A DNA stretch of 64,000 nucleotides from Minisyncoccota bacterium (GTDB lineage Bacteria; Patescibacteriota; Minisyncoccia; Phycocordibacterales; DATDWN01), in the NCBI GenBank assembly GCA_041658985.1, contig JBAZZC010000006.1, positions 2,369 to 66,368 on the forward strand. Direction: 5' to 3'. Positions 2,865-63,142 of the stretch are shown here, one piece after another. Position 1 is the stretch's first letter, and the number at the start of each line of letters is the position of its first letter. The position numbers were made by a program, and so were the translations under genes. The notes beneath the pieces are model-generated. The model had not been told where the DNA came from. It ran no database searches and saw nothing but the letters and a program-made list of their open reading frames with translations.

Positions 2865-3005
2865 ATTTATCCGCACACTAATTTTGCCATTGTTTTCAAT
2901 ATTCTGCAACAGAACCCTGTATAAATTCGACTTGAACTGTTTGCGTCAAAAAAATAGAAAGCCATGTTGAAAACCAGAATGATGGCAAATTTAGTGTTCG
3001 GATAT
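2865..3005. repeat. Paired-arm inverted-repeat element, family 1 copy G
   Basis: Left arm TTTATCCGCACACTAATTTTGCCATTGTTTT pairs with right arm AATGATGGCAAATTTAGTGTTCGGATA across a ~75-nt AT-rich spacer. It lies between the DedA stop and the small membrane ORF start, 7 nt from the ATG. Confidence 0.6.
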
Positions 3006-3021
3006 ACCAAATAAAGAAAAA

Positions 3022-6951: not shown

Positions 6952-7099
6952 ATTAATCCGAACACTAACTTTAGCATCGTTGCCTAGTGTTTTCGTATAT
7001 TATTACCCAATTTGATATTTACTATAGAATAATACATAGTTAATACTAAATAACAAGCAACAGTAAAAACACAATGCTAAAGTTAGTGTGCGGATAAAT
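6952..7099. repeat. Paired-arm inverted-repeat element, family 1 copy A (between divergent truB and hisS)
   Basis: Arms TTAATCCGAACACTAACTTTAGCATCGTTG and CAATGCTAAAGTTAGTGTGCGGATAAAT. The right arm ends 1 nt before the hisS ATG. The spacer is AT-rich with outward promoter-like hexamers. Confidence 0.65.
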
Positions 7100-26461: not shown

Positions 26462-26604
26462 ATAAATCCGAACACCAACTTTGACATCGTTACTTCTGTC
26501 CCAAGTTTTGCTAACCAGACTTATCTATGTGTCCATCAATACTTAATGGGTCATATCATTAAAGTAACAATGGGACAATGTCAAAGTTGGTGTGCGGATA
26601 AAAA
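26462..26604. repeat. Paired-arm inverted-repeat element, family 1 copy B (rpoB upstream/leader region)
   Basis: Arms AATCCGAACACCAACTTTGACATCGTTACTTCTGTCCCA and TGGGACAATGTCAAAGTTGGTGTGCGGATAAAA. The arm-specific variants CCAACTTTGAC co-vary in both arms. Confidence 0.65.
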
Positions 26605-27912: not shown

Positions 27913-28055
27913 TTTATCCGCACACTAACTCTGGTATCGTTGCCTCGTCTCCAGATTTAGTTGTGGTTATTTTTATTTGCGTTTATAAAAGTAATAAATT
28001 TAATATTAATTATGGCAACACTGGAGACAATACCAGAGTTAGTGTTCGGATTAAT
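27913..28055. repeat. Paired-arm inverted-repeat element, family 1 copy C (between the small ORF and lexA)
   Basis: Arms TTTATCCGCACACTAACTCTGGTATCGTTGCCTCGTCTCCAG and CTGGAGACAATACCAGAGTTAGTGTTCGGATTAAT (~40 bp). The left arm ends 5 nt before the lexA ATG. Confidence 0.65.
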
Positions 28056-29394: not shown

Positions 29395-29484
29395 TGCGGA
29401 GGATACAGGGATTGAACCTGTGTAACGGTATTAAGCGTGTTGTCGGTGTCGTAGACCGATGCATTACCACTCTGCCAATCCTCC
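29395..29484 (-). tRNA. tRNA gene: anticodon loop CUACGAC gives ACG (Arg) tentatively, with an atypically long ~21-nt variable region
   Basis: Reverse complement has GGAGGAT acceptor stem, AGTGGTAA D-loop, TCGGT/ACCGA anticodon stem, ACAGG-TTCAATC-CCTGT T-arm and ATCCTCC 3' acceptor. No encoded CCA. Confidence 0.5.
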
Positions 29485-34917: not shown

Positions 34918-34973
34918 TTTAACACAAAATCAGAAATCCAATTTACTACGATATATCGTAGTAAATTGAAATT

Positions 34974-50456: not shown

Positions 50457-50631
50457 TTCGTTATTTTAACATACCCTATGTTTACCTAAATAATTTTTTA
50501 TGATATTTCAATTTGGTACAATATATTGTATCAAATTGAAATATTGGAGAGATTGTTTTTTTATAAAAACAAAAAGAGCCGTCGGCGCACGAAACGCAAA
50601 CGGACTCTTTGGAAAAAACGTACTGACACAC

Positions 50632-50898
50632 TTACTTGCGCTTGGCAAGTCGTTGAAGCGCATTATCCGCTTCACGGACTTGCGTCGTCAGGCGAAATAC
50701 CTCAAGACGCAAATCCTCACACTCACGAACCAGACGAACAGCGTTTGCCAAAAGGCTAATCTTGGCGTTGGCATCTGGGTCTGGATTGCCAGAATCAACA
50801 CCATCCTTGAGAAACCTGATTTGGACAAGCATCAGGGCTTTGAAAGCATCAAGGGGAATCTCGAGCTTCCTTCCTGTTACCAACTCTTGCGTACTCAT
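50632..50898 (-). CDS. GC-rich cassette gene b (89 aa), N-terminal paralogue of 50910-51248
   Basis: RBS GGAGGA. Terminator AAGAGCCGT...ACGGACTCTT plus U-run at 50565-50625. Confidence 0.4.
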   Translation of the reverse strand: MSTQELVTGRKLEIPLDAFKALMLVQIRFLKDGVDSGNPDPDANAKISLLANAVRLVRECEDLRLEVFRLTTQVREADNALQRLAKRK

Positions 50899-50909
50899 AC
50901 TTCCTCCAA

Positions 50910-51248
50910 TCAAGAACCTGTTGTTGTCTTGGCCTGCAGTTCAACGAGGCCACAGGTGCATGGCTTGGCCTCGTGAACAACGACACCACCATGACCGATG
51001 ACGGCCGGAACCATGGTGCACCCGTCTGTGTGCTGGATGTACGGCTTCAGCGCCTCGACCTTCGCACGAAGGTCAGCGAGTTCGCGAACCGCAAGGACAG
51101 CAGGCTCGAGGACTTCTTCCTGCTCTCTGGTGTAACCATCACCACCCCCGGTCCTGAGGTAATGAATTTTGATCAGGATTTTCTGCAACACCCGATCAAG
51201 AGAGTCGACGAGCTTTCTTCCTTTGACCAAATCACTCAGGTCGTCCAT
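50910..51248 (-). CDS. GC-rich cassette gene a (113 aa) with a CxC motif near the C-terminus
   Basis: RBS GGGAGG. N-terminus ...LVKGRKLVDSLD... parallels ...LVTGRKLEIPLD... of gene b. Its stop lies 12 nt upstream of gene b's start codon. Confidence 0.4.
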   Translation of the reverse strand: MDDLSDLVKGRKLVDSLDRVLQKILIKIHYLRTGGGDGYTREQEEVLEPAVLAVRELADLRAKVEALKPYIQHTDGCTMVPAVIGHGGVVVHEAKPCTCGLVELQAKTTTGS

Positions 51249-51389
51249 TGACTTTGCCTCCCACCACAAAATACCACTACTTTTCCCAAATATCAAGCCC
51301 CTCTCCACCATAATGATGACATGCTATAATGTGAATCGAGCCTGTATTCACTTTATAACTTTCTACTTTATAACTTTATAACTCCTCAC

Positions 51390-54300
51390 ATGTCATCGAA
51401 ATTTATTCATCTACACACCCACTCCCACTATTCTCTTCTTAACGCCTTACCAAAAATTGAGGCCCTTATTTCTGAAGCTAAAAAATATGATATGCCAGCA
51501 TTAGCTCTAACCGACAACTGCAACTTATATGGAGCTATTGAATTTTATAAAGCCTGTAAGAAAAAGGAGGTGAAACCAATAATCGGCATTGATGCCTATG
51601 TTGCTTATCGCTCAAGACACGACAAACAAACTGGAGTTGATAAGGAGCGCTATCGACTAGTTCTTCTTGCAGAAAATGAGGTGGGTTATAAAAATTTAAT
51701 TAAACTGGTTACATATGCTCACCTAGAGGGTTTTTACTACAAACCCAGAGTTGACCGTGAGCTTTTAGAAAAATATCACGAAGGACTTATTGCTATCGCC
51801 CCATCTTTTTCTAGTGACATCTTGAAATCACTTCAGCTGGCTAACGACGAGCAAGCAATGGAAAGATTGACTTGGTACAAACAAGTCTTTGATGGTACAA
51901 GTCAAAATCCAAACTTTTTTCTTGAGGTAACCCATCACCCAGAAATGAAAGGTCACGACAAAGATATGGAAAGAATTGTGGAATTTGCCACACGCACAAA
52001 TACACCTTTAGTTGCCGCACATGATGTTTACTATATAAACAAAGAAGACCGTGTGGCTCGAGATACTTTACTTGCGGTTCAATCTCAGAATGATGAAAAA
52101 ATAGAAGAAGGAGATGATGATTTTTCTTTCATAAGTCCAGAACAAGCAGAAAAATATTTTAAAGATTTACCAGATGCACTTGAAAATAACGCAAAAATTG
52201 TTGATAGATGTAATTTAGAAATTTCAATCGGCAAATGGTTTCTACCAAATTATGTTGTGGAAAGTGGTCTATCATATGACGACGAACTTCGTCGAATTAC
52301 AGAAGAAGGTATAAAAAAACGAGGGCTAAAGAAAACCCCAGAAATTGAGGAAAGAATGGAATATGAATTAAAAATAATAAAAGATAAGGGATATGCATCA
52401 TATTTTTTGGTTGTATCTGACCTCCTACGTTTTGCCCATGAAAATGGCATCTTAACTACAATTAGAGGCTCTGTCGCTGGTTCTCTGGTTACCTATCTTG
52501 CTGGTATTACAAACGTAGACCCGATTCTTTACATGCTTCCTTTTGAAAGATTTTTAAACCCAGAAAGACCATCAGCACCAGATATTGATATGGATTTTGC
52601 CGATACTAAACGAGATGAAGTGATAGATTATGCAAGACAAAAATACGGCGTTGATAAAGTAGCCCAAATAGGAACCTTTGGAACAATGGCTGCTCGCGGA
52701 GCAGTGCGAGATGTTACTCGTGCTCTCGGATTTCCATATGGAACCGGTGATGCAATTGCAAAACTTATTCCAATGGGAGCCCAAGGTTTTCCAATGACAC
52801 TTGATAGAGCCATAAAGGAAACTCCGGAACTCAAACAAATGTACGAAACGGATGTAGATGTAAAAAAAATAATCGACATGGCAAAAAAGATAGAGGGGTG
52901 TGCAAGACACATTTCTGTTCACGCTGCTGGTGTTGTTATTTCTCCGACACCACTCACTGACTATGTACCACTTCAATACGATACTAAGGGTGACAACAAG
53001 ATTATAACTCAATATGACATGAATGATGTTGGTGAAGACGGTGTTGGTCTTCTAAAGTTTGATTTTCTTGGAATAAGAAACCTTTCTATCTTAGCTGATG
53101 CGGTAAAACTAACTGAAAAATTGGAGGGTGTAAAAGTAGACATTGAAAATGTTCCAATAGATGATAAAAAAACTTTTGAGATGCTGGCCAAGGGAGAAAC
53201 CGTCGGGCTCTTTCAACTTAATGGTGATGGAATGACACACGCTCTTATGGAACTTGTACCGACGGCTATATACGACATTAATCTCATGGTTGCTCTTTAT
53301 CGTCCTGGACCAATGGATAACATTTATGAATACATAGCCAGAAAACATGGCAAGAAGCCAGTAACATATTTACACCCAAAAATGAAGGGTTTTTTGGAAA
53401 GAACTTATGGAGTACTGGTTTATCAGGACGACTTGCTTTACACCGCTATTGAAGTTGCAGGATACACTTGGGGTGAAGCAGATAAATTTCGAAAAGCCGT
53501 TGGAAAGAAAATCCGTGAAGAAATGGCTAAACAGCACGTTAAATTCGTAGAAGGCTGTCAGAAACACGGAGGGATGTCAGAAAAAAAGGCGGAAGAACTT
53601 TGGAACCTATTTGAACCATTCCAGGGTTACGGTTTCAACAAAGCCCATGCCGCAAGTTATGGAAAAGTTGCTTACCAGACAGCCTATATGAAAGCCAACT
53701 TTCCTGCTGTCTACATGTCTGCTGTTCTAACAGCCGAATCTGGTGATGTAGAAAAAATCGCAGAAATAATCAGCGAATGTAAAAGAATGGGTATCCCTGT
53801 TTTACCTCCAGACGTCAATGAATCTTTTGAAGGCTTCACGGTCATTAAGAAAAGTGGTGAAAACGAAAAGGACGCTATTCGATTCGGACTAACAACAATT
53901 AAAAACTTTGGGGAAGGAATCGCCTCATCAATTATTGCCGAGAGAAAAGCCGGTGGAAAATTTACTTCTCTTTCAGATTTTCTTCGTCGCATAAAAGATA
54001 AAAATTTGAATAAAAAATCTCTTGAATCACTTATAAAAACCGGTGCCATGGATTTATTTGGAGACAGAGCAGAAATGTTACACAATTTGGATAGAATACT
54101 TGCATTCAGTAAAGAAGAAAGAGGTAAGGGTGATGCCCAGGATTCGCTTTTCGTCGGAATCGCCGAGGTCATATCTGCTGGTGATATCATTCTTGAACCA
54201 ACACCAAAAACAAACCCGACAGATAAATTAATGTGGGAAAAAGAACTTCTTGGGCTTTATATTTCTGGACACCCCCTGGAAAGCTTCAAACACAAATTAG

Positions 54301-54596
54301 AAAACAAAGAAACAAACATTAAAAAAATAAAAGATAAGGCCAAAGAAAGAGAAGCTGTGGTCGTAGGCGGAATTATTGAGGAGATTAGAAGCGTTACAAC
54401 AAAAAATGGTGAAAAAATGGTTTTCCTTAAACTGGCCGACTTAACAGATTCAATTGAAGCGGTAGCTTTTCCAAAAGTCTTTGAAGAATTTCAAGATATT
54501 TTGATTCCAGAAAGTTGTGTGGTTATAAAGGGCACATTTTCCACCAGAAACGCCGGAAAAAGTATTTTGATTGATAAGGTGAAATTGATGGAGTAA
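51390..54596 (+). CDS. dnaE: DNA polymerase III alpha subunit
   Basis: PHP domain HLHTHSHYSLL, Pol IIIalpha catalytic core (GLLKFDFLGIRNLS) and an OB fold. 1068 aa. Confidence 0.95.
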   Translation: MSSKFIHLHTHSHYSLLNALPKIEALISEAKKYDMPALALTDNCNLYGAIEFYKACKKKEVKPIIGIDAYVAYRSRHDKQTGVDKERYRLVLLAENEVGYKNLIKLVTYAHLEGFYYKPRVDRELLEKYHEGLIAIAPSFSSDILKSLQLANDEQAMERLTWYKQVFDGTSQNPNFFLEVTHHPEMKGHDKDMERIVEFATRTNTPLVAAHDVYYINKEDRVARDTLLAVQSQNDEKIEEGDDDFSFISPEQAEKYFKDLPDALENNAKIVDRCNLEISIGKWFLPNYVVESGLSYDDELRRITEEGIKKRGLKKTPEIEERMEYELKIIKDKGYASYFLVVSDLLRFAHENGILTTIRGSVAGSLVTYLAGITNVDPILYMLPFERFLNPERPSAPDIDMDFADTKRDEVIDYARQKYGVDKVAQIGTFGTMAARGAVRDVTRALGFPYGTGDAIAKLIPMGAQGFPMTLDRAIKETPELKQMYETDVDVKKIIDMAKKIEGCARHISVHAAGVVISPTPLTDYVPLQYDTKGDNKIITQYDMNDVGEDGVGLLKFDFLGIRNLSILADAVKLTEKLEGVKVDIENVPIDDKKTFEMLAKGETVGLFQLNGDGMTHALMELVPTAIYDINLMVALYRPGPMDNIYEYIARKHGKKPVTYLHPKMKGFLERTYGVLVYQDDLLYTAIEVAGYTWGEADKFRKAVGKKIREEMAKQHVKFVEGCQKHGGMSEKKAEELWNLFEPFQGYGFNKAHAASYGKVAYQTAYMKANFPAVYMSAVLTAESGDVEKIAEIISECKRMGIPVLPPDVNESFEGFTVIKKSGENEKDAIRFGLTTIKNFGEGIASSIIAERKAGGKFTSLSDFLRRIKDKNLNKKSLESLIKTGAMDLFGDRAEMLHNLDRILAFSKEERGKGDAQDSLFVGIAEVISAGDIILEPTPKTNPTDKLMWEKELLGLYISGHPLESFKHKLENKETNIKKIKDKAKEREAVVVGGIIEEIRSVTTKNGEKMVFLKLADLTDSIEAVAFPKVFEEFQDILIPESCVVIKGTFSTRNAGKSILIDKVKLME

Positions 54597-54641
54597 TCAT
54601 AATTTATCATTACTCAACTTAAAAATTATTTAATATCTCAT

Positions 54642-55028
54642 TTACGCCATGGCTGAAATGGAAGAGTTGTATGGTTGTGCTAATTTAAATGTTTTGAATT
54701 TATTCCTTATTTTTATCTCCTCAAGGTAGCTTAGAAATTGTTTTGGCAGTGGTGACGGCCCGACCCAAATACTCTTTTGTATCATGACATATCCAAATTT
54801 AATTAAATGTCGCCTAAACCAATCTCTTTCTTTTTTTAGCTCGTGTGGAATATCATACATGACGATAAGATTTTTTGGTAAACTTTTATTGAAAGGAGAC
54901 TGGAAAGAAATATGATATGGGTTTCTTTTTTTTATTACTGATTTGTTGTTTTGTTTTTTAGTAGATACTGGTAAACCAAACATATTTACTTTCACACCTT
55001 TATAATTAAAAATTTTTTGCTTACCCAT
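54642..55028 (-). CDS. Solo Cas2/VapD-superfamily protein with a ~45-aa Lys-rich N-terminal extension
   Basis: LIVMYDIPHELKKERDWFRRHLIKFGYVMIQKSIWVG parallels the Cas2 pattern (ILMFDMP..ERK.YRKFRKFL..GF.M.Q.SVY). No cas1 or CRISPR array nearby. Confidence 0.45.
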   Translation of the reverse strand: MGKQKIFNYKGVKVNMFGLPVSTKKQNNKSVIKKRNPYHISFQSPFNKSLPKNLIVMYDIPHELKKERDWFRRHLIKFGYVMIQKSIWVGPSPLPKQFLSYLEEIKIRNKFKTFKLAQPYNSSISAMA

Positions 55029-55050
55029 ATATTCTATTATACACTACTAT

Positions 55051-55078
55051 CCCCATATACGCCATGGCGTATATGGGG
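55051..55078. promoter_or_regulatory. 28-bp perfect palindrome CCCCATATACGCCATGGCGTATATGGGG overlapping the -35 region of the Cas2-like gene
   Basis: It lies directly upstream of TGTATAAT (extended -10), which ends 8 nt before the ATG of 54642-55028, suggesting a leaderless mRNA. Confidence 0.5.
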
Positions 55079-55159
55079 ATATACAGTATTGTTAGTGTTT
55101 TTATATAGTTGTTTGTATAACAAAGGGCTGGTCGAGTTGACCAGCCCCAAGAACACACA

Positions 55160-55714
55160 TCAGTCTCTGTCGGCCCTGTGCCGATCTGATTCGGTACGCT
55201 TCACAGCATGTGTGGCACGTTCTGCTCGCACCTGCGCCACAATCTTGCGTTTCCGCTCGAGGAGATCGGTCGGGGAGCCAGGATCACCACACAGTTGTTG
55301 TAGATAGAATTCGCTCAGGCGCCGAGCACCTGCCAGACTGGCTTTGTCACGAGCAGGCTCAGAGTGAAGCCGGATGAGGTGGAAAGCCTCGTTCTGATCC
55401 ACTCGAGCAATATGCTCAATGACGGCCACCCAAACAGCTGACAGAAGAGAATTTCTGTAGATCTCCTTGAAAATCTCCAGGTCCCCGATCTGTTGGAGTT
55501 GACGCAGAGCATCGTAGGCTGCATCCTGGTCTACTCCAATTGCAATCTCGTACAGCCGGCGCCCCAACCGGAATGCATCCGCTACACTCCTTGCAAAAAC
55601 CTTGCGATACTTACGAAAGAACTCTGTGTCTTTCGTAGTCACTTCATGTTCTGAGAGAATCTGAAGTGTTGAGTTGATCTCCGTTCCCGTCATGGACGAA
55701 AGTAAGCTGGCCAT
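55160..55714 (-). CDS. GC-rich cassette gene (184 aa, hypothetical)
   Basis: TTGACA-16-TATAAAT promoter and RBS GGAG. Terminator GGGCTGGTC-AACTC-GACCAGCCC plus U-run at 55110-55145. Confidence 0.45.
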   Translation of the reverse strand: MASLLSSMTGTEINSTLQILSEHEVTTKDTEFFRKYRKVFARSVADAFRLGRRLYEIAIGVDQDAAYDALRQLQQIGDLEIFKEIYRNSLLSAVWVAVIEHIARVDQNEAFHLIRLHSEPARDKASLAGARRLSEFYLQQLCGDPGSPTDLLERKRKIVAQVRAERATHAVKRTESDRHRADRD

Positions 55715-60424: not shown

Positions 60425-60570
60425 TTTACCCGCTACACTAACTTTACCATTGTTTTTGTATTCTAATTCAAAATGTTGTTGAATAGTGTTTTTTTCATGA
60501 GACTACTGAAAATAATAGTAGTATTCTGTTAGAAAAACAGAATGATGGTAAAGTTAGTGTGCGGGTTTAC
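60425..60570. repeat. Paired-arm inverted-repeat element, family 1 copy D (between divergent gyrB and pheS)
   Basis: Arms TTTACCCGCTACACTAACTTTACCATTG and AATGATGGTAAAGTTAGTGTGCGGGTTTAC. The arm-specific variants CCCGC and TTTACCAT co-vary. Confidence 0.6.
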
Positions 60571-61753: not shown

Positions 61754-63001
61754 ATGCCTGATATTTCAAATATAATTACATATATATTTTTATTTATATC
61801 TCTTTACTTTGAGGTCTTTATCCTTATTACTTACTTTGAAAACCGTCTCGAAATAAAAAGTGAGGAAAATTTTATAACCCTCGGAGTAAAAAAATATCCA
61901 ACAGTTACAATAATAGTTCCGTGTTGGAATGAAGAATTTACTGTTTCAAAAACTATACATTCTTTGCTCTCTCTGGATTATCCAAAAAGTAAGCTGAAAA
62001 TAATGGTTATAGATGATGGCTCCACAGACAAAACTTGGGAGAAAATCCAAAAGTTCAAAAATAATTCGCAGGTTGAAATATACACCAAGACCAATGGGGG
62101 TAAATACACCGCATTAAACTTTGGAATCTCAAAAATGAGTAGTGATTTGGTGGGTTGTCTCGACGCGGATTCATATGTTCATAAAGATGCACTAAAAAAT
62201 ATTGTGGTTTATTTTCAAGACAAAGAAACAATGGCCGTTGCTCCATCGGTAAGGTTGTGGCAACCAAAAGGCCCTCTTCAACTTTTGCAAAAAGTAGACT
62301 ATGCTTTTGGAATATTTAACAGAAAGATGTTTCATTATTTGCAAGCTGTCTATATTACACCAGGACCGTTCTCCATATTCAGACTTGATGTCTTCAAAAA
62401 ACTCGGAGGGTACAGACACGCTCATAATACAGAAGATATAGAGATTGCCCTCAGAATGCAGAAGAACGGTTACAAAATTGTTCACGCTCATAATGCTATG
62501 GTTTATACAGTCGCTCCAAACAGTTTAAGAAAATTACTCAAACAAAGGACCCGATGGGTTTATGGTTTTATTAAAAACGCTGGTGATTACAGACAAATGT
62601 TTTTCAAAAGAAAATACGGAAATCTCGGAGTTTTTATTTTGCCTATGGCTGCGATTTCAATTATTTCTATCTTAAGTATTGCCAGTATCTCAATCATTAG
62701 TGTATTAAATCTTTTATCGAACAAGTACTTGGAAATACAAGCTGTGGGATTAAGTTTTCATTGGCCATTTAGCAGGTTTGAGTGGTTTTATGTAAACACA
62801 GAAATCATCTCAATTGTTGCAATAATAACCACTGTCGGAACAATAACAATGATAGTAATCTCAAAAAGAATGGCTGAAGGAAAATTCAATCTTGGAATGG
62901 ACTTGATATATTTTCTAACATTGTATATGTTTATAGCGCCCTTGTGGATTGGTAAAGCAGTCTACAATGTCATATTCAGCATTAAAGCCTCCTGGAGATA
63001 A
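61754..63001 (+). CDS. Family-2 glycosyltransferase (membrane-embedded, cellulose/chitin-synthase-like topology)
   Basis: GT-A motifs (DDGSTD, DAD, QRTRW-like QxxRW) with N-terminal and C-terminal TM segments. Confidence 0.75.
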   Translation: MPDISNIITYIFLFISLYFEVFILITYFENRLEIKSEENFITLGVKKYPTVTIIVPCWNEEFTVSKTIHSLLSLDYPKSKLKIMVIDDGSTDKTWEKIQKFKNNSQVEIYTKTNGGKYTALNFGISKMSSDLVGCLDADSYVHKDALKNIVVYFQDKETMAVAPSVRLWQPKGPLQLLQKVDYAFGIFNRKMFHYLQAVYITPGPFSIFRLDVFKKLGGYRHAHNTEDIEIALRMQKNGYKIVHAHNAMVYTVAPNSLRKLLKQRTRWVYGFIKNAGDYRQMFFKRKYGNLGVFILPMAAISIISILSIASISIISVLNLLSNKYLEIQAVGLSFHWPFSRFEWFYVNTEIISIVAIITTVGTITMIVISKRMAEGKFNLGMDLIYFLTLYMFIAPLWIGKAVYNVIFSIKASWR

Positions 63002-63142
63002 ATCCGCACACTAACTCTAGCATTGTCTTTTTTGTTGCAGGGGTTAGTATCAAAATAATAGATTTTATTAATATAATAGTAGATAGCATTACTAAGTTTG
63101 GAAAGACGATGCAACGATGCCAGAGTTAGTGTGCGGATAAAA
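63000..63142. repeat. Paired-arm inverted-repeat element, family 1 copy E (between the GT2 stop and the next gene's start)
   Basis: Arms AAATCCGCACACTAACTCTAGCATTGTC and GATGCCAGAGTTAGTGTGCGGATAAAAC. The left arm starts at the GT2 stop codon and the right arm ends 1 nt before the ATG at 63144. Confidence 0.65.

Follow-up and report, generated by a model that had tools for sequence, protein, structure and literature searches.

What does a Cas2-like gene do when it stands alone between two palindromes? The question is raised by a gene of 128 codons, with an ATG start, at positions 54642-55028 (minus strand) of a contig from a Minisyncoccota bacterium (GenBank assembly GCA_041658985.1, contig JBAZZC010000006.1). 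We analysed 64,000 nucleotides of this contig (positions 2,369 to 66,368), hereafter the window. An earlier note on this DNA had described an orphan Cas2/VapD-like ribonuclease gene in an autoregulated toxin-like module. We arrive at a different reading, to which we assign a probability of about 60%: the gene encodes an autorepressor-like reader of its own palindrome, and together with two palindromic sites it forms a self-contained, insertable unit.

Palindromes at both ends of the gene

Upstream of the gene lies a perfect palindrome of 34 nt, TATCCCCATATACGCCATGGCGTATATGGGGATA (55048-55081), a probable operator whose conserved 20-nt core is ATATACGCCATGGCGTATAT (55055-55074). The earlier note had rightly called this palindrome perfect, but had given its length as 28 and had missed an imperfect second copy, CATTTACGCCATGGCTGAAATGG (54639-54661, core 54640-54659), at the other end of the gene. 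The upstream palindrome is the longest perfect one in the window; from base composition, chance would give about 8e-6 of this length, and the longest found in 100 shuffles of the window measured 22 nt. A 14-nt core search of the window returned two matches against 0.09 expected, and a position-weight scan of the 64 kb returned these two sites and no others. The matrix, built from homologous sites, replaced a generic longest-palindrome finder that was misled by AT-rich palindromes; it also recovered imperfect variants of the type 'TCAGCC...GGCGTA', which a strict symmetric filter had overlooked.

On the gene strand, the palindrome is followed by GTAGTG, the -10 hexamer TATAAT (55036-55041, minus strand), 7 nt and the ATG (55026-55028). 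The palindrome covers the -35 region, with its centre 36 nt before the ATG. If transcription starts at the A of the ATG, the core spans about -45 to -25, and the sequence at the -35 position, TGGCGT, matches the -35 consensus at only two of six positions. The promoter had been described as carrying an extended -10; the extension is only approximate, with TG at -14/-13 instead of -15/-14. Because TATAAT stands 7 nt from the ATG and no Shine-Dalgarno motif precedes this ATG, the mRNA is probably leaderless. The downstream copy overlaps codons 124-128 (ISAMA) and the stop codon, and sits between the convergent ends of the Cas2-like open reading frame (ORF) and dnaE (51390-54596). An Rfam scan of the window found a tRNA alone.

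This operator-like, leaderless arrangement, as the earlier note had called it, is conserved across the family. We collected 80 homologous loci from species-representative genomes and scanned 838 kb in all. Of the 80, 77 have the palindrome upstream of the gene and 75 have it downstream, and both copies are there in 72 of 79; in 54 of 58 loci the distance from the upstream centre to the ATG is 33-38 nt. A TATAAT box (at least 5 of 6 positions) was recognised at 77 of the 80 genes, and in 69 of them it stops 6-9 nt short of the ATG; five of the 80 have a Shine-Dalgarno-like motif. The 838 kb contain nine further sites, all within 1.3 kb of the gene save for those at a second gene copy (L013) and at a mis-placed start (L074); relaxing the threshold brings in two more, both weak and over 4.5 kb distant. 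Sites more than 1.5 kb from any gene copy number about two in roughly 835 kb.

The pattern of conservation suggests that the site is read as sequence. Counted from the dyad, base pairs 1, 3, 7, 9 and 10 never vary, and pair 4 shows 96-99% conservation; the outer pairs 11-14 do vary, yet they remain complementary in 75-82% of the upstream sites. Copies from one locus are more alike (23.3 of 28 positions) than copies from different loci (18.4 of 28), and none of 2,000 permutations over 22 strictly defined loci reached the observed value. Paralogues within one genome bear different palindromes at both ends. In the coding tail that underlies the downstream copy (...ISAMA and stop), the last Ala codon is GCG in 28 of 29 genes as against 11% in the gene body, and the Ser codon is TCA in 25 of 25 genes; with synonymous positions frozen in this way, it is the DNA site rather than the peptide that is conserved. 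The spacing between the two centres ranges from 382 to 496 bp.

The centre of the palindrome varies together with one residue of the protein. Residue 62, His in the window (codon 54843-54845, minus strand), is the first residue of helix a1 and directly follows MYDIP, the motif of strand b1. We compared 98 distinct units drawn from genome and metagenome loci. Asp or Glu at this position is paired with an upstream centre C[T/G]AT[A/C]G (24 units), and CCATGG is seen with His, Ser, Phe, Tyr, Gln, Asn or Ala (74 units), so that the rule holds in 98 of 98. In terms of base pairs, a non-acidic residue accompanies C·G at ±2 and an acidic one T·A or G·C. Parsimony on a neighbour-joining tree from which the residue-62 column was left out counts 13 switches for each of the two characters (Fisher 2e-23); these statistics are only partly corrected for phylogeny, and a conservative count by clades of C-terminal tail type gives about six independent switches. 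Residue 62 explains 100% of the entropy of centre type, residue 85 explains 52% and every other column at most 30%; residue 85 is Arg solely when residue 62 is acidic. We rejected block linkage as the cause of this covariation, since residues encoded nearer to the site, which would be co-transferred with it, explain no more than 30%.

A second residue, in the basic linker, follows the palindrome further out: position 35 (Arg in the window, codon 54924-54926, minus strand; elsewhere Arg or Lys/Leu/Ser) tracks base pair ±8 (A or T/C, respectively) in 93 of 98 units. Linker residues 24-32 also share high mutual information with the outer pairs 11-14, but these columns are of very high entropy and we do not rely on them. 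The downstream copy obeys the residue-62 rule less strictly, in 91 of 96 units. The closest long-form relatives of the protein, described below, obey it as well (P0124, Glu with CTATAG; P0131, Glu with CTATCG; P0127, Gln with CCATGG or CCATAG). Taken together, the covariation very probably points to direct, sequence-specific reading of the DNA by a dimer, and suggests that it is the Cas2-fold domain that reads the sequence on the dyad of the palindrome, something not known, to our knowledge, for Cas2 or PaaX. Autorepression by the Cas2-fold protein is probable on the same grounds.

Half-converted centres (CTATGG, CCATAG) were seen in L014, L024, L029, L035, L047 and L054. They link CCATGG and CTATAG through single C-to-T or G-to-A transitions, a pattern that could arise by deamination if a cytosine of CCATGG is methylated.

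Gain, loss and duplication of the unit

The gene and both palindromes form a unit of about 450 bp with a single ORF, and comparisons between genomes show that this whole unit has been gained, lost and duplicated over evolutionary time. It recurs in a few intergenic slots among housekeeping genes: between rpsG and fusA, in folD-PAP2-secD, downstream of smc, next to thrS (the upstream side in the window) and next to dnaE (the downstream side in the window). These slots are stable across 10-16 genomes each. Protein clades and slots do not map one to one: the rpsG-fusA slot is used by two clades, and closely related proteins are found in different slots. Related genomes have orthologous slots from which both the gene and any palindrome are absent, for example between the stop codon of a DEAD-box helicase and the helicase terminator. 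A genome carries one to three diverged copies; in the several genomes with two or three, the palindrome variants differ.

The limits of the unit coincide with its palindromes. In 928 pairwise alignments, the similar stretch runs from one palindrome to the other. One intragenomic pair (L064/L072) is 91% identical over 479 nt; the likeness sets in 14 nt ahead of the upstream centre, stops 21 nt past the downstream centre and gives way to unrelated flanks. We found no target-site duplication at the junctions examined. In a cassette model with crossover at the palindrome centre, the outer arms should be chimeric; this is not evident, the upstream sites being mostly perfect palindromes, and the model was rejected. 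A phage origin of the unit was also rejected, as neither the protein nor the exact palindrome was found in the viral contigs of IMG/VR.

Palindromes also occur without the gene. A metagenome scan with the exact 20-nt core as query gave 130 sites in 119 loci, of which 48 flank a gene copy, 46 are solo and 36 lie too near a contig end to call. The solo sites are perfect, intergenic palindromes of 20-46 nt, located mostly at gene 3' ends (roughly 16 between convergent, 20 between co-directional and 4 between divergent genes). Some occupy slots that hold the gene elsewhere, and one shares a contig with a gene copy. A third palindrome copy brackets an unrelated neighbouring gene in 5 of the 80 loci, and two sites are inverted relative to each other in L032 and L062. 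It should be noted that the short-read contigs L001, L002 and L206 (Logan) and L202 (JGI) stop at or inside the upstream palindrome, likely because the assembly graph breaks where a perfect palindrome exceeds the k-mer in length; units would therefore often be split in metagenome assemblies.

A few arrangements of sites stand apart. Pairs or clusters of palindromes lacking a Cas2-like gene were seen in L101 (2321-3062, with a 159-residue ORF between two sites), L090 (6518-7579), L133 (147-235, three sites within 90 nt) and L093 (10517-10573, two sites of different variants 56 nt apart). In L108, a solo palindrome at about 4113 lies 55 nt upstream of an IS200/RAYT-like ORF with the motif NHFHIIL; the same slot, from dnaE to genes 20 and 19, carries the Cas2-like gene in L003 and L059.

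The protein and its long-form relatives

That the ORF contains a Cas2-like core with a Cas2-like fold was correctly recognised in the earlier note; the core it quoted lies at residues 54-90. An AlphaFold2 model (predicted local distance difference test score, pLDDT, 77) has an N-terminal hairpin at residues 7-14, a disordered basic linker (24-33) and then the b-a-b-b-a-b order of a Cas2 fold. In a Foldseek search of the PDB the best matches are all Cas2, with PaaX (8A39) and VapD ranking lower; a PDB sequence search gave weak Cas2 matches alone and did not find PaaX. The Cas2-like domain (residues 54-117; 54678-54869, minus strand) exceeds the curated cut-offs of two Cas2 profiles, Pfam CRISPR_Cas2 (E=3e-6, 27.7 bits, cut-off 23.8) and TIGR01573 (29.7 bits, cut-off 24.5), and PADLOC Cas2_II models match residues 54-106 at 1e-10. 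Its top profile match is nevertheless another family, Pfam PaaX_M (PF20803; E=7e-13, 48.9 bits, cut-off 24, residues 55-117), which is the central, Cas2-like dimerisation domain of the PaaX repressor. Asp59, the Asp of MYDIP at the C-terminal end of strand b1 (codon 54852-54854, minus strand), had been singled out as conserved and is invariant in all four alignments (A1, A2, A3 and A4); Arg68 and Arg72, like Asp59, are invariant even among relatives with 25% identity.

The N-terminal part (residues 1-53; 54870-55028, minus strand) had been regarded as a Lys-rich extension preceding the core. It is basic, with 12 Lys or Arg and no Asp or Glu in the translation, but it is no add-on. A hairpin motif, YKGxxVNxFGLP, followed by a Lys/Arg-rich linker is kept family-wide in the alignments. 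The nearest relatives, found by a profile search over 1.8 billion representatives, are proteins of 160-170 residues that have the same C-terminal domain and a longer N-terminus, which matches PadR-type and eS19-type winged helices. A model of this long form (pLDDT 92) joins a winged helix to the Cas2-like domain, and its best PDB match is E. coli PaaX, spanning both domains. Aligned with the long form, the short form is shorter by about 30 residues, which make up the recognition helix and the wing and are replaced by the basic linker. The supposed extension is thus, as judged from these alignments, a conserved remnant of the winged-helix domain that is intact in the 160-residue relatives, and the protein is best described from its profiles as a truncated PaaX-type protein, a Cas2-fold dimerisation domain with a very basic N-terminal arm. 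The long-form relatives share the palindrome-gene-palindrome layout, but their palindromes, at either end, are quite different ones.

More than 1,250 homologues of about 125-130 residues were found, 64-74% identical over their full length and all from Patescibacteria (Paceibacterota, Nomurabacteria, Minisyncoccia). They are named 'Cas2' at NCBI and 'PaaX' at JGI; the exact protein of the window (P0001) has the NCBI name 'Cas2'.

PaaX is a winged-helix, dimerising repressor that binds to a palindromic operator and, by occluding its own promoter, represses it (PMC9493321). The likeness of the window gene to PaaX (PDB 8A39, 3L09) and PadR-like regulators extends to the central dimerisation domain PF20803, to the two-domain plan of the long-form relatives, which combines a winged helix with a Cas2-like domain, and to the predicted palindromic operator at the gene's own promoter. 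Unlike PaaX, the window protein ends at residue 128, before any C-terminal domain for the ligand phenylacetyl-CoA, and its short form is without the recognition helix and wing; going by the covariation, it is the Cas2-like domain and the basic arm that read the sequence; and the operator-like site is repeated at the gene 3' end of what is an insertion cassette. The protein would work most like a PaaX- or PadR-type autorepressor, yet it is no member of the PaaX family by the defining tests, scoring 18.9 bits against a cut-off of 264.55 with the PaaX equivalog model TIGR02277.

Autorepression weighed against other explanations

We propose that a dimer of the protein sits on the dyad of the 20-bp core ATATACGCCATGGCGTATAT, where the b1-a1 junction, from Asp59 to His62, would read the central CCATGG and the basic arm around Arg35 would reach the outer TATAT part of each half-site. 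In Cas2 dimers the Asp of b1 lies at the two-fold axis, and in Cas1-Cas2 complexes the Cas2 dimer binds the middle of the duplex on its two-fold axis. The upstream copy, with its centre about 35 bp before the start codon, would fill the -35 position of a leaderless promoter, and since RNA polymerase would need its -35 contact at the position of the core, a dimer bound there should repress its own transcription, as PaaX does at its own promoter. The downstream copy would act as an auxiliary operator, or as a roadblock sealing the unit from neighbouring transcription; here it can be no operator for the next gene, because dnaE is convergent. In the course of evolution the unit as a whole has entered intergenic slots among the housekeeping genes of Paceibacteria, has been copied from one slot to another and has disappeared from some.

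The arrangement of the two sites recalls repressors of the lac type, in which a main operator (O1) at the promoter is joined by a weaker copy (O2) about 400 bp downstream inside the coding sequence. Unlike in lac-type repression, tetramerisation or looping is unsupported here: the spacing of the two sites lacks the 10-11 bp periodicity of helical phasing, and we rejected DNA looping between them. A further difference from lac is that the second site here is also the boundary of an insertion unit.

This absence of phasing is one of several points that count against an autorepressor. The functional part of the proposal, binding and repression, is inferred throughout. The short form has lost the very elements, recognition helix and wing, with which PaaX and PadR proteins bind DNA, and we know of no precedent in PaaX for DNA reading by the Cas2-like domain. 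The variable outer arms are perfectly complementary over up to 43 nt at gene loci and 46 nt at solo sites, which exceeds the evident need of a dimer of 128-residue subunits and could reflect hairpin or cruciform biology. The downstream site conflicts with residue 62 in 5 of 96 units, and the residue-62 switches shrink to about six under the conservative count. Finally, the solo palindromes lie mostly at gene 3' ends, away from promoters, and a pure autoregulator leaves them unexplained.

The solo sites are among the observations that bring a second explanation into play, one that overlaps with ours and that we regard as possible, if clearly less likely. The unit might be an unrecognised, minimal mobile element, whose palindromes are its ends or recombination sites, recognised and cut or recombined by the Cas2-fold protein itself. 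Solo palindromes would then be footprints, targets or landing sites, neighbouring genes might occasionally be captured between extra ends, and autoregulation would be a side feature, as in many insertion sequences; we consider these corollaries equally tentative. Homology that stops at the outer edges of the palindromes, empty orthologous slots, close relatives in different slots with rpsG-fusA shared by two clades, and one to three diverged copies per genome all fit such an element. So do the solo sites in slots that hold the gene elsewhere, the extra sites around unrelated neighbours in the five loci and in L101, the inverted sites, and the invariance of Asp59, placed at the dimer axis over the palindrome centre, and of Arg68 and Arg72. 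Against it, any catalytic activity of the Cas2-fold protein would be conjectural, the protein has no known transposase or recombinase motif and matches no transposase family in Pfam or NCBIfam, Y1_Tnp included, and no target-site duplication was seen at the junctions. Bursts of near-identical copies are also missing, the best intragenomic pair being the one at 91%. The stable slots and strong purifying selection on the protein fit a resident gene, the mostly perfect upstream arms disagree with a simple crossover at the centre, and no copies were found in the viral contigs of IMG/VR.

Known mobile elements give a similarly divided picture. REP elements (repetitive extragenic palindromes) and their RAYT genes (REP-associated tyrosine transposases) resemble this unit in having a low-copy gene flanked by palindromic repeats, clade-specific palindrome variants, additional solo palindromes in extragenic space mostly at gene 3' ends, and largely vertical inheritance of slots. 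Unlike a RAYT, however, the protein is no HUH/Y1 transposase, the palindromes are longer and perfect, and in the loci covered the solo ones appear to number a few per megabase, as against tens to hundreds of REPs per genome. Insertion sequences, of which IS200/IS605 come closest in size and hairpin ends, are likewise compact, single-gene and repeat-delimited, with an upstream repeat that overlaps the promoter, such that end-binding would autoregulate, and with occupied and empty sites and an intragenomic duplicate. The unit differs from them in lacking a known transposase fold or motif, target-site duplications and high-identity multi-copy families, and in that each of its ends is itself palindromic.

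Were the protein itself to mobilise the unit, this would be categorically new. The Cas2-fold protein would then be the working part of an element, in parallel to the casposon origin proposed for Cas1, with hints at the origin of the CRISPR-adaptation Cas2 module and of the PaaX dimerisation domain.

It is improbable that the palindromes act as hairpins in RNA or single-stranded DNA, be it as terminator, processing site or stabiliser, with the Cas2-fold protein binding or cleaving RNA. Ribonuclease activity is established for some Cas2 and VapD proteins, which would suit such a role, as would the long, perfect palindromes with their variable but complementary outer arms, the preference of solo sites for gene 3' ends or convergent gaps, and the A-tract and T-tract flanks of a few solo sites (L100, L130, L153), which are like those of bidirectional terminators. 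However, mismatches on the gene strand show no strand bias, with G·T and A·C at 25 and 17 upstream and at 35 and 33 downstream, and thus no sign of selection on an RNA hairpin. Moreover, the upstream copy precedes the -10 box and hence lies outside the gene's own transcript. A T-tract is absent after the gene-flanking copies and is found at only 8 of the 46 solo sites. The invariant positions and the residue-to-base covariation instead fit reading of the double strand by a dimer.

Still less likely is the orphan VapD/Cas2-type ribonuclease toxin in an autoregulated module that the earlier note had proposed. In its favour are the Cas2/VapD-like fold, with VapD structures at Foldseek ranks 17 and 30 (a distant likeness to 3ui3 and 6zi1), the conserved Asp and the palindrome over the promoter. 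Kinship with VapD is not borne out by profiles, as no VapD family is among the Pfam and NCBIfam matches of the protein at E up to 1, the best match being PaaX_M at 48.9 bits against 27.7 for Cas2; the nearest relatives are winged-helix regulators. The unit has a single ORF, no antitoxin ORF and no conserved neighbour, and an antisense ORF of at least 40 residues is present in only 20 of 81 loci and is not conserved. Identity of 55-75% across a class is unlike that of fast-evolving toxins, and the residues co-vary with DNA bases rather than with a partner protein. The leaderless layout, which had been taken as typical of toxin modules, is no mark of a toxin. Among 602 ORFs neighbouring the gene (L003-L082; start codons assigned naively), Shine-Dalgarno-like motifs precede 9%, and in 22% the start codon follows 6-9 nt behind the end of a TATAAT-like box. 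This suggests that leaderless or Shine-Dalgarno-independent initiation is widespread in these Paceibacteria and that the layout is a lineage trait. The claim of a Cas2-like fold stands, with profile matches and a predicted fold to bear it out, while the functional inference drawn from it fails.

A functional or relic Cas2 of CRISPR adaptation is hardly credible: the TIGR01573 and Cas2_II matches, the NCBI name, the ferredoxin-like b-a-b-b-a-b fold, the Asp at the end of b1 and a probable dimer are what it shares with such proteins, but PaaX_M outscores Cas2, the N-terminal domain is foreign to Cas2 and forms an extra arm, the gene has its own promoter and putative operator, recognition appears to be sequence-specific instead of backbone-only, and, as the earlier note had said, CRISPR components are lacking. 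The 64-kb window contains no CRISPR-like repeat array. Among its 37 ORFs of at least 150 residues, no Cas1 model is found in the best 25 of 86 PADLOC families (E-values 1e-66 to 3e-22, save two families listed first, each matched by two ORFs), so that a weak match is possible. No cas gene recurs among the neighbours of the 80 loci, which are rpsG, fusA, folD, smc, dnaE and thrS.

The annotation of this family deserves attention. It comprises more than 1,000 proteins of Patescibacteria, most of the named ones labelled 'CRISPR-associated endonuclease Cas2', that do not belong to CRISPR systems, and CRISPR censuses of the candidate phyla radiation that count Cas2 matches would be inflated. The unit is a self-contained cassette that comes and goes as a block inside core operons (e.g., rpsG/fusA) of very small genomes, and lends itself to the study of a selfish or insulating element in organisms that have hardly any DNA to spare. 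The family would also provide many natural, orthogonal repressor-operator pairs of minimal size. We found no description of the family or its palindromes in the searchable literature.

Several other features of the window were observed. Two islands of 50-56% guanine plus cytosine (GC), at 50600-51350 and 55100-55714, interrupt a genome of about 35% GC; none of the minus-strand ORFs in them (50632-50913, 50910-51311 and 55160-55714) has a significant match in Pfam or NCBIfam, or any match in PADLOC. Compared with L041 and L044, the ORF at 55160-55714 has been inserted between the upstream palindrome and thrS; the island around it carries a terminator hairpin of its own at 55148-55124. Another long perfect palindrome, of 30 nt, CAATTTACTACGATATATCGTAGTAAATTG (34939-34968), is single-copy in the window and unrelated to that of the Cas2-like gene; two minus-strand genes flank it, and it stands 21 nt ahead of the downstream gene's ATG. 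A dispersed element is present in six copies (2866-3006, 6953-7098, 26463-26602, 27913-28054, 60426-60564 and 62999-63141), each with a 29-nt arm, TTTATCCGCACACTAAyTyTgnCATyGTT, and an inverted partner about 113 nt later; by its structure it could be akin to a miniature inverted-repeat transposable element, or a structured-RNA or regulatory module. The sole tRNA of the window, tRNA-Arg(ACG) at 29396-29484, measures 89 nt, unusually long for a bacterial tRNA-Arg, and may owe its length to an intron or insertion.

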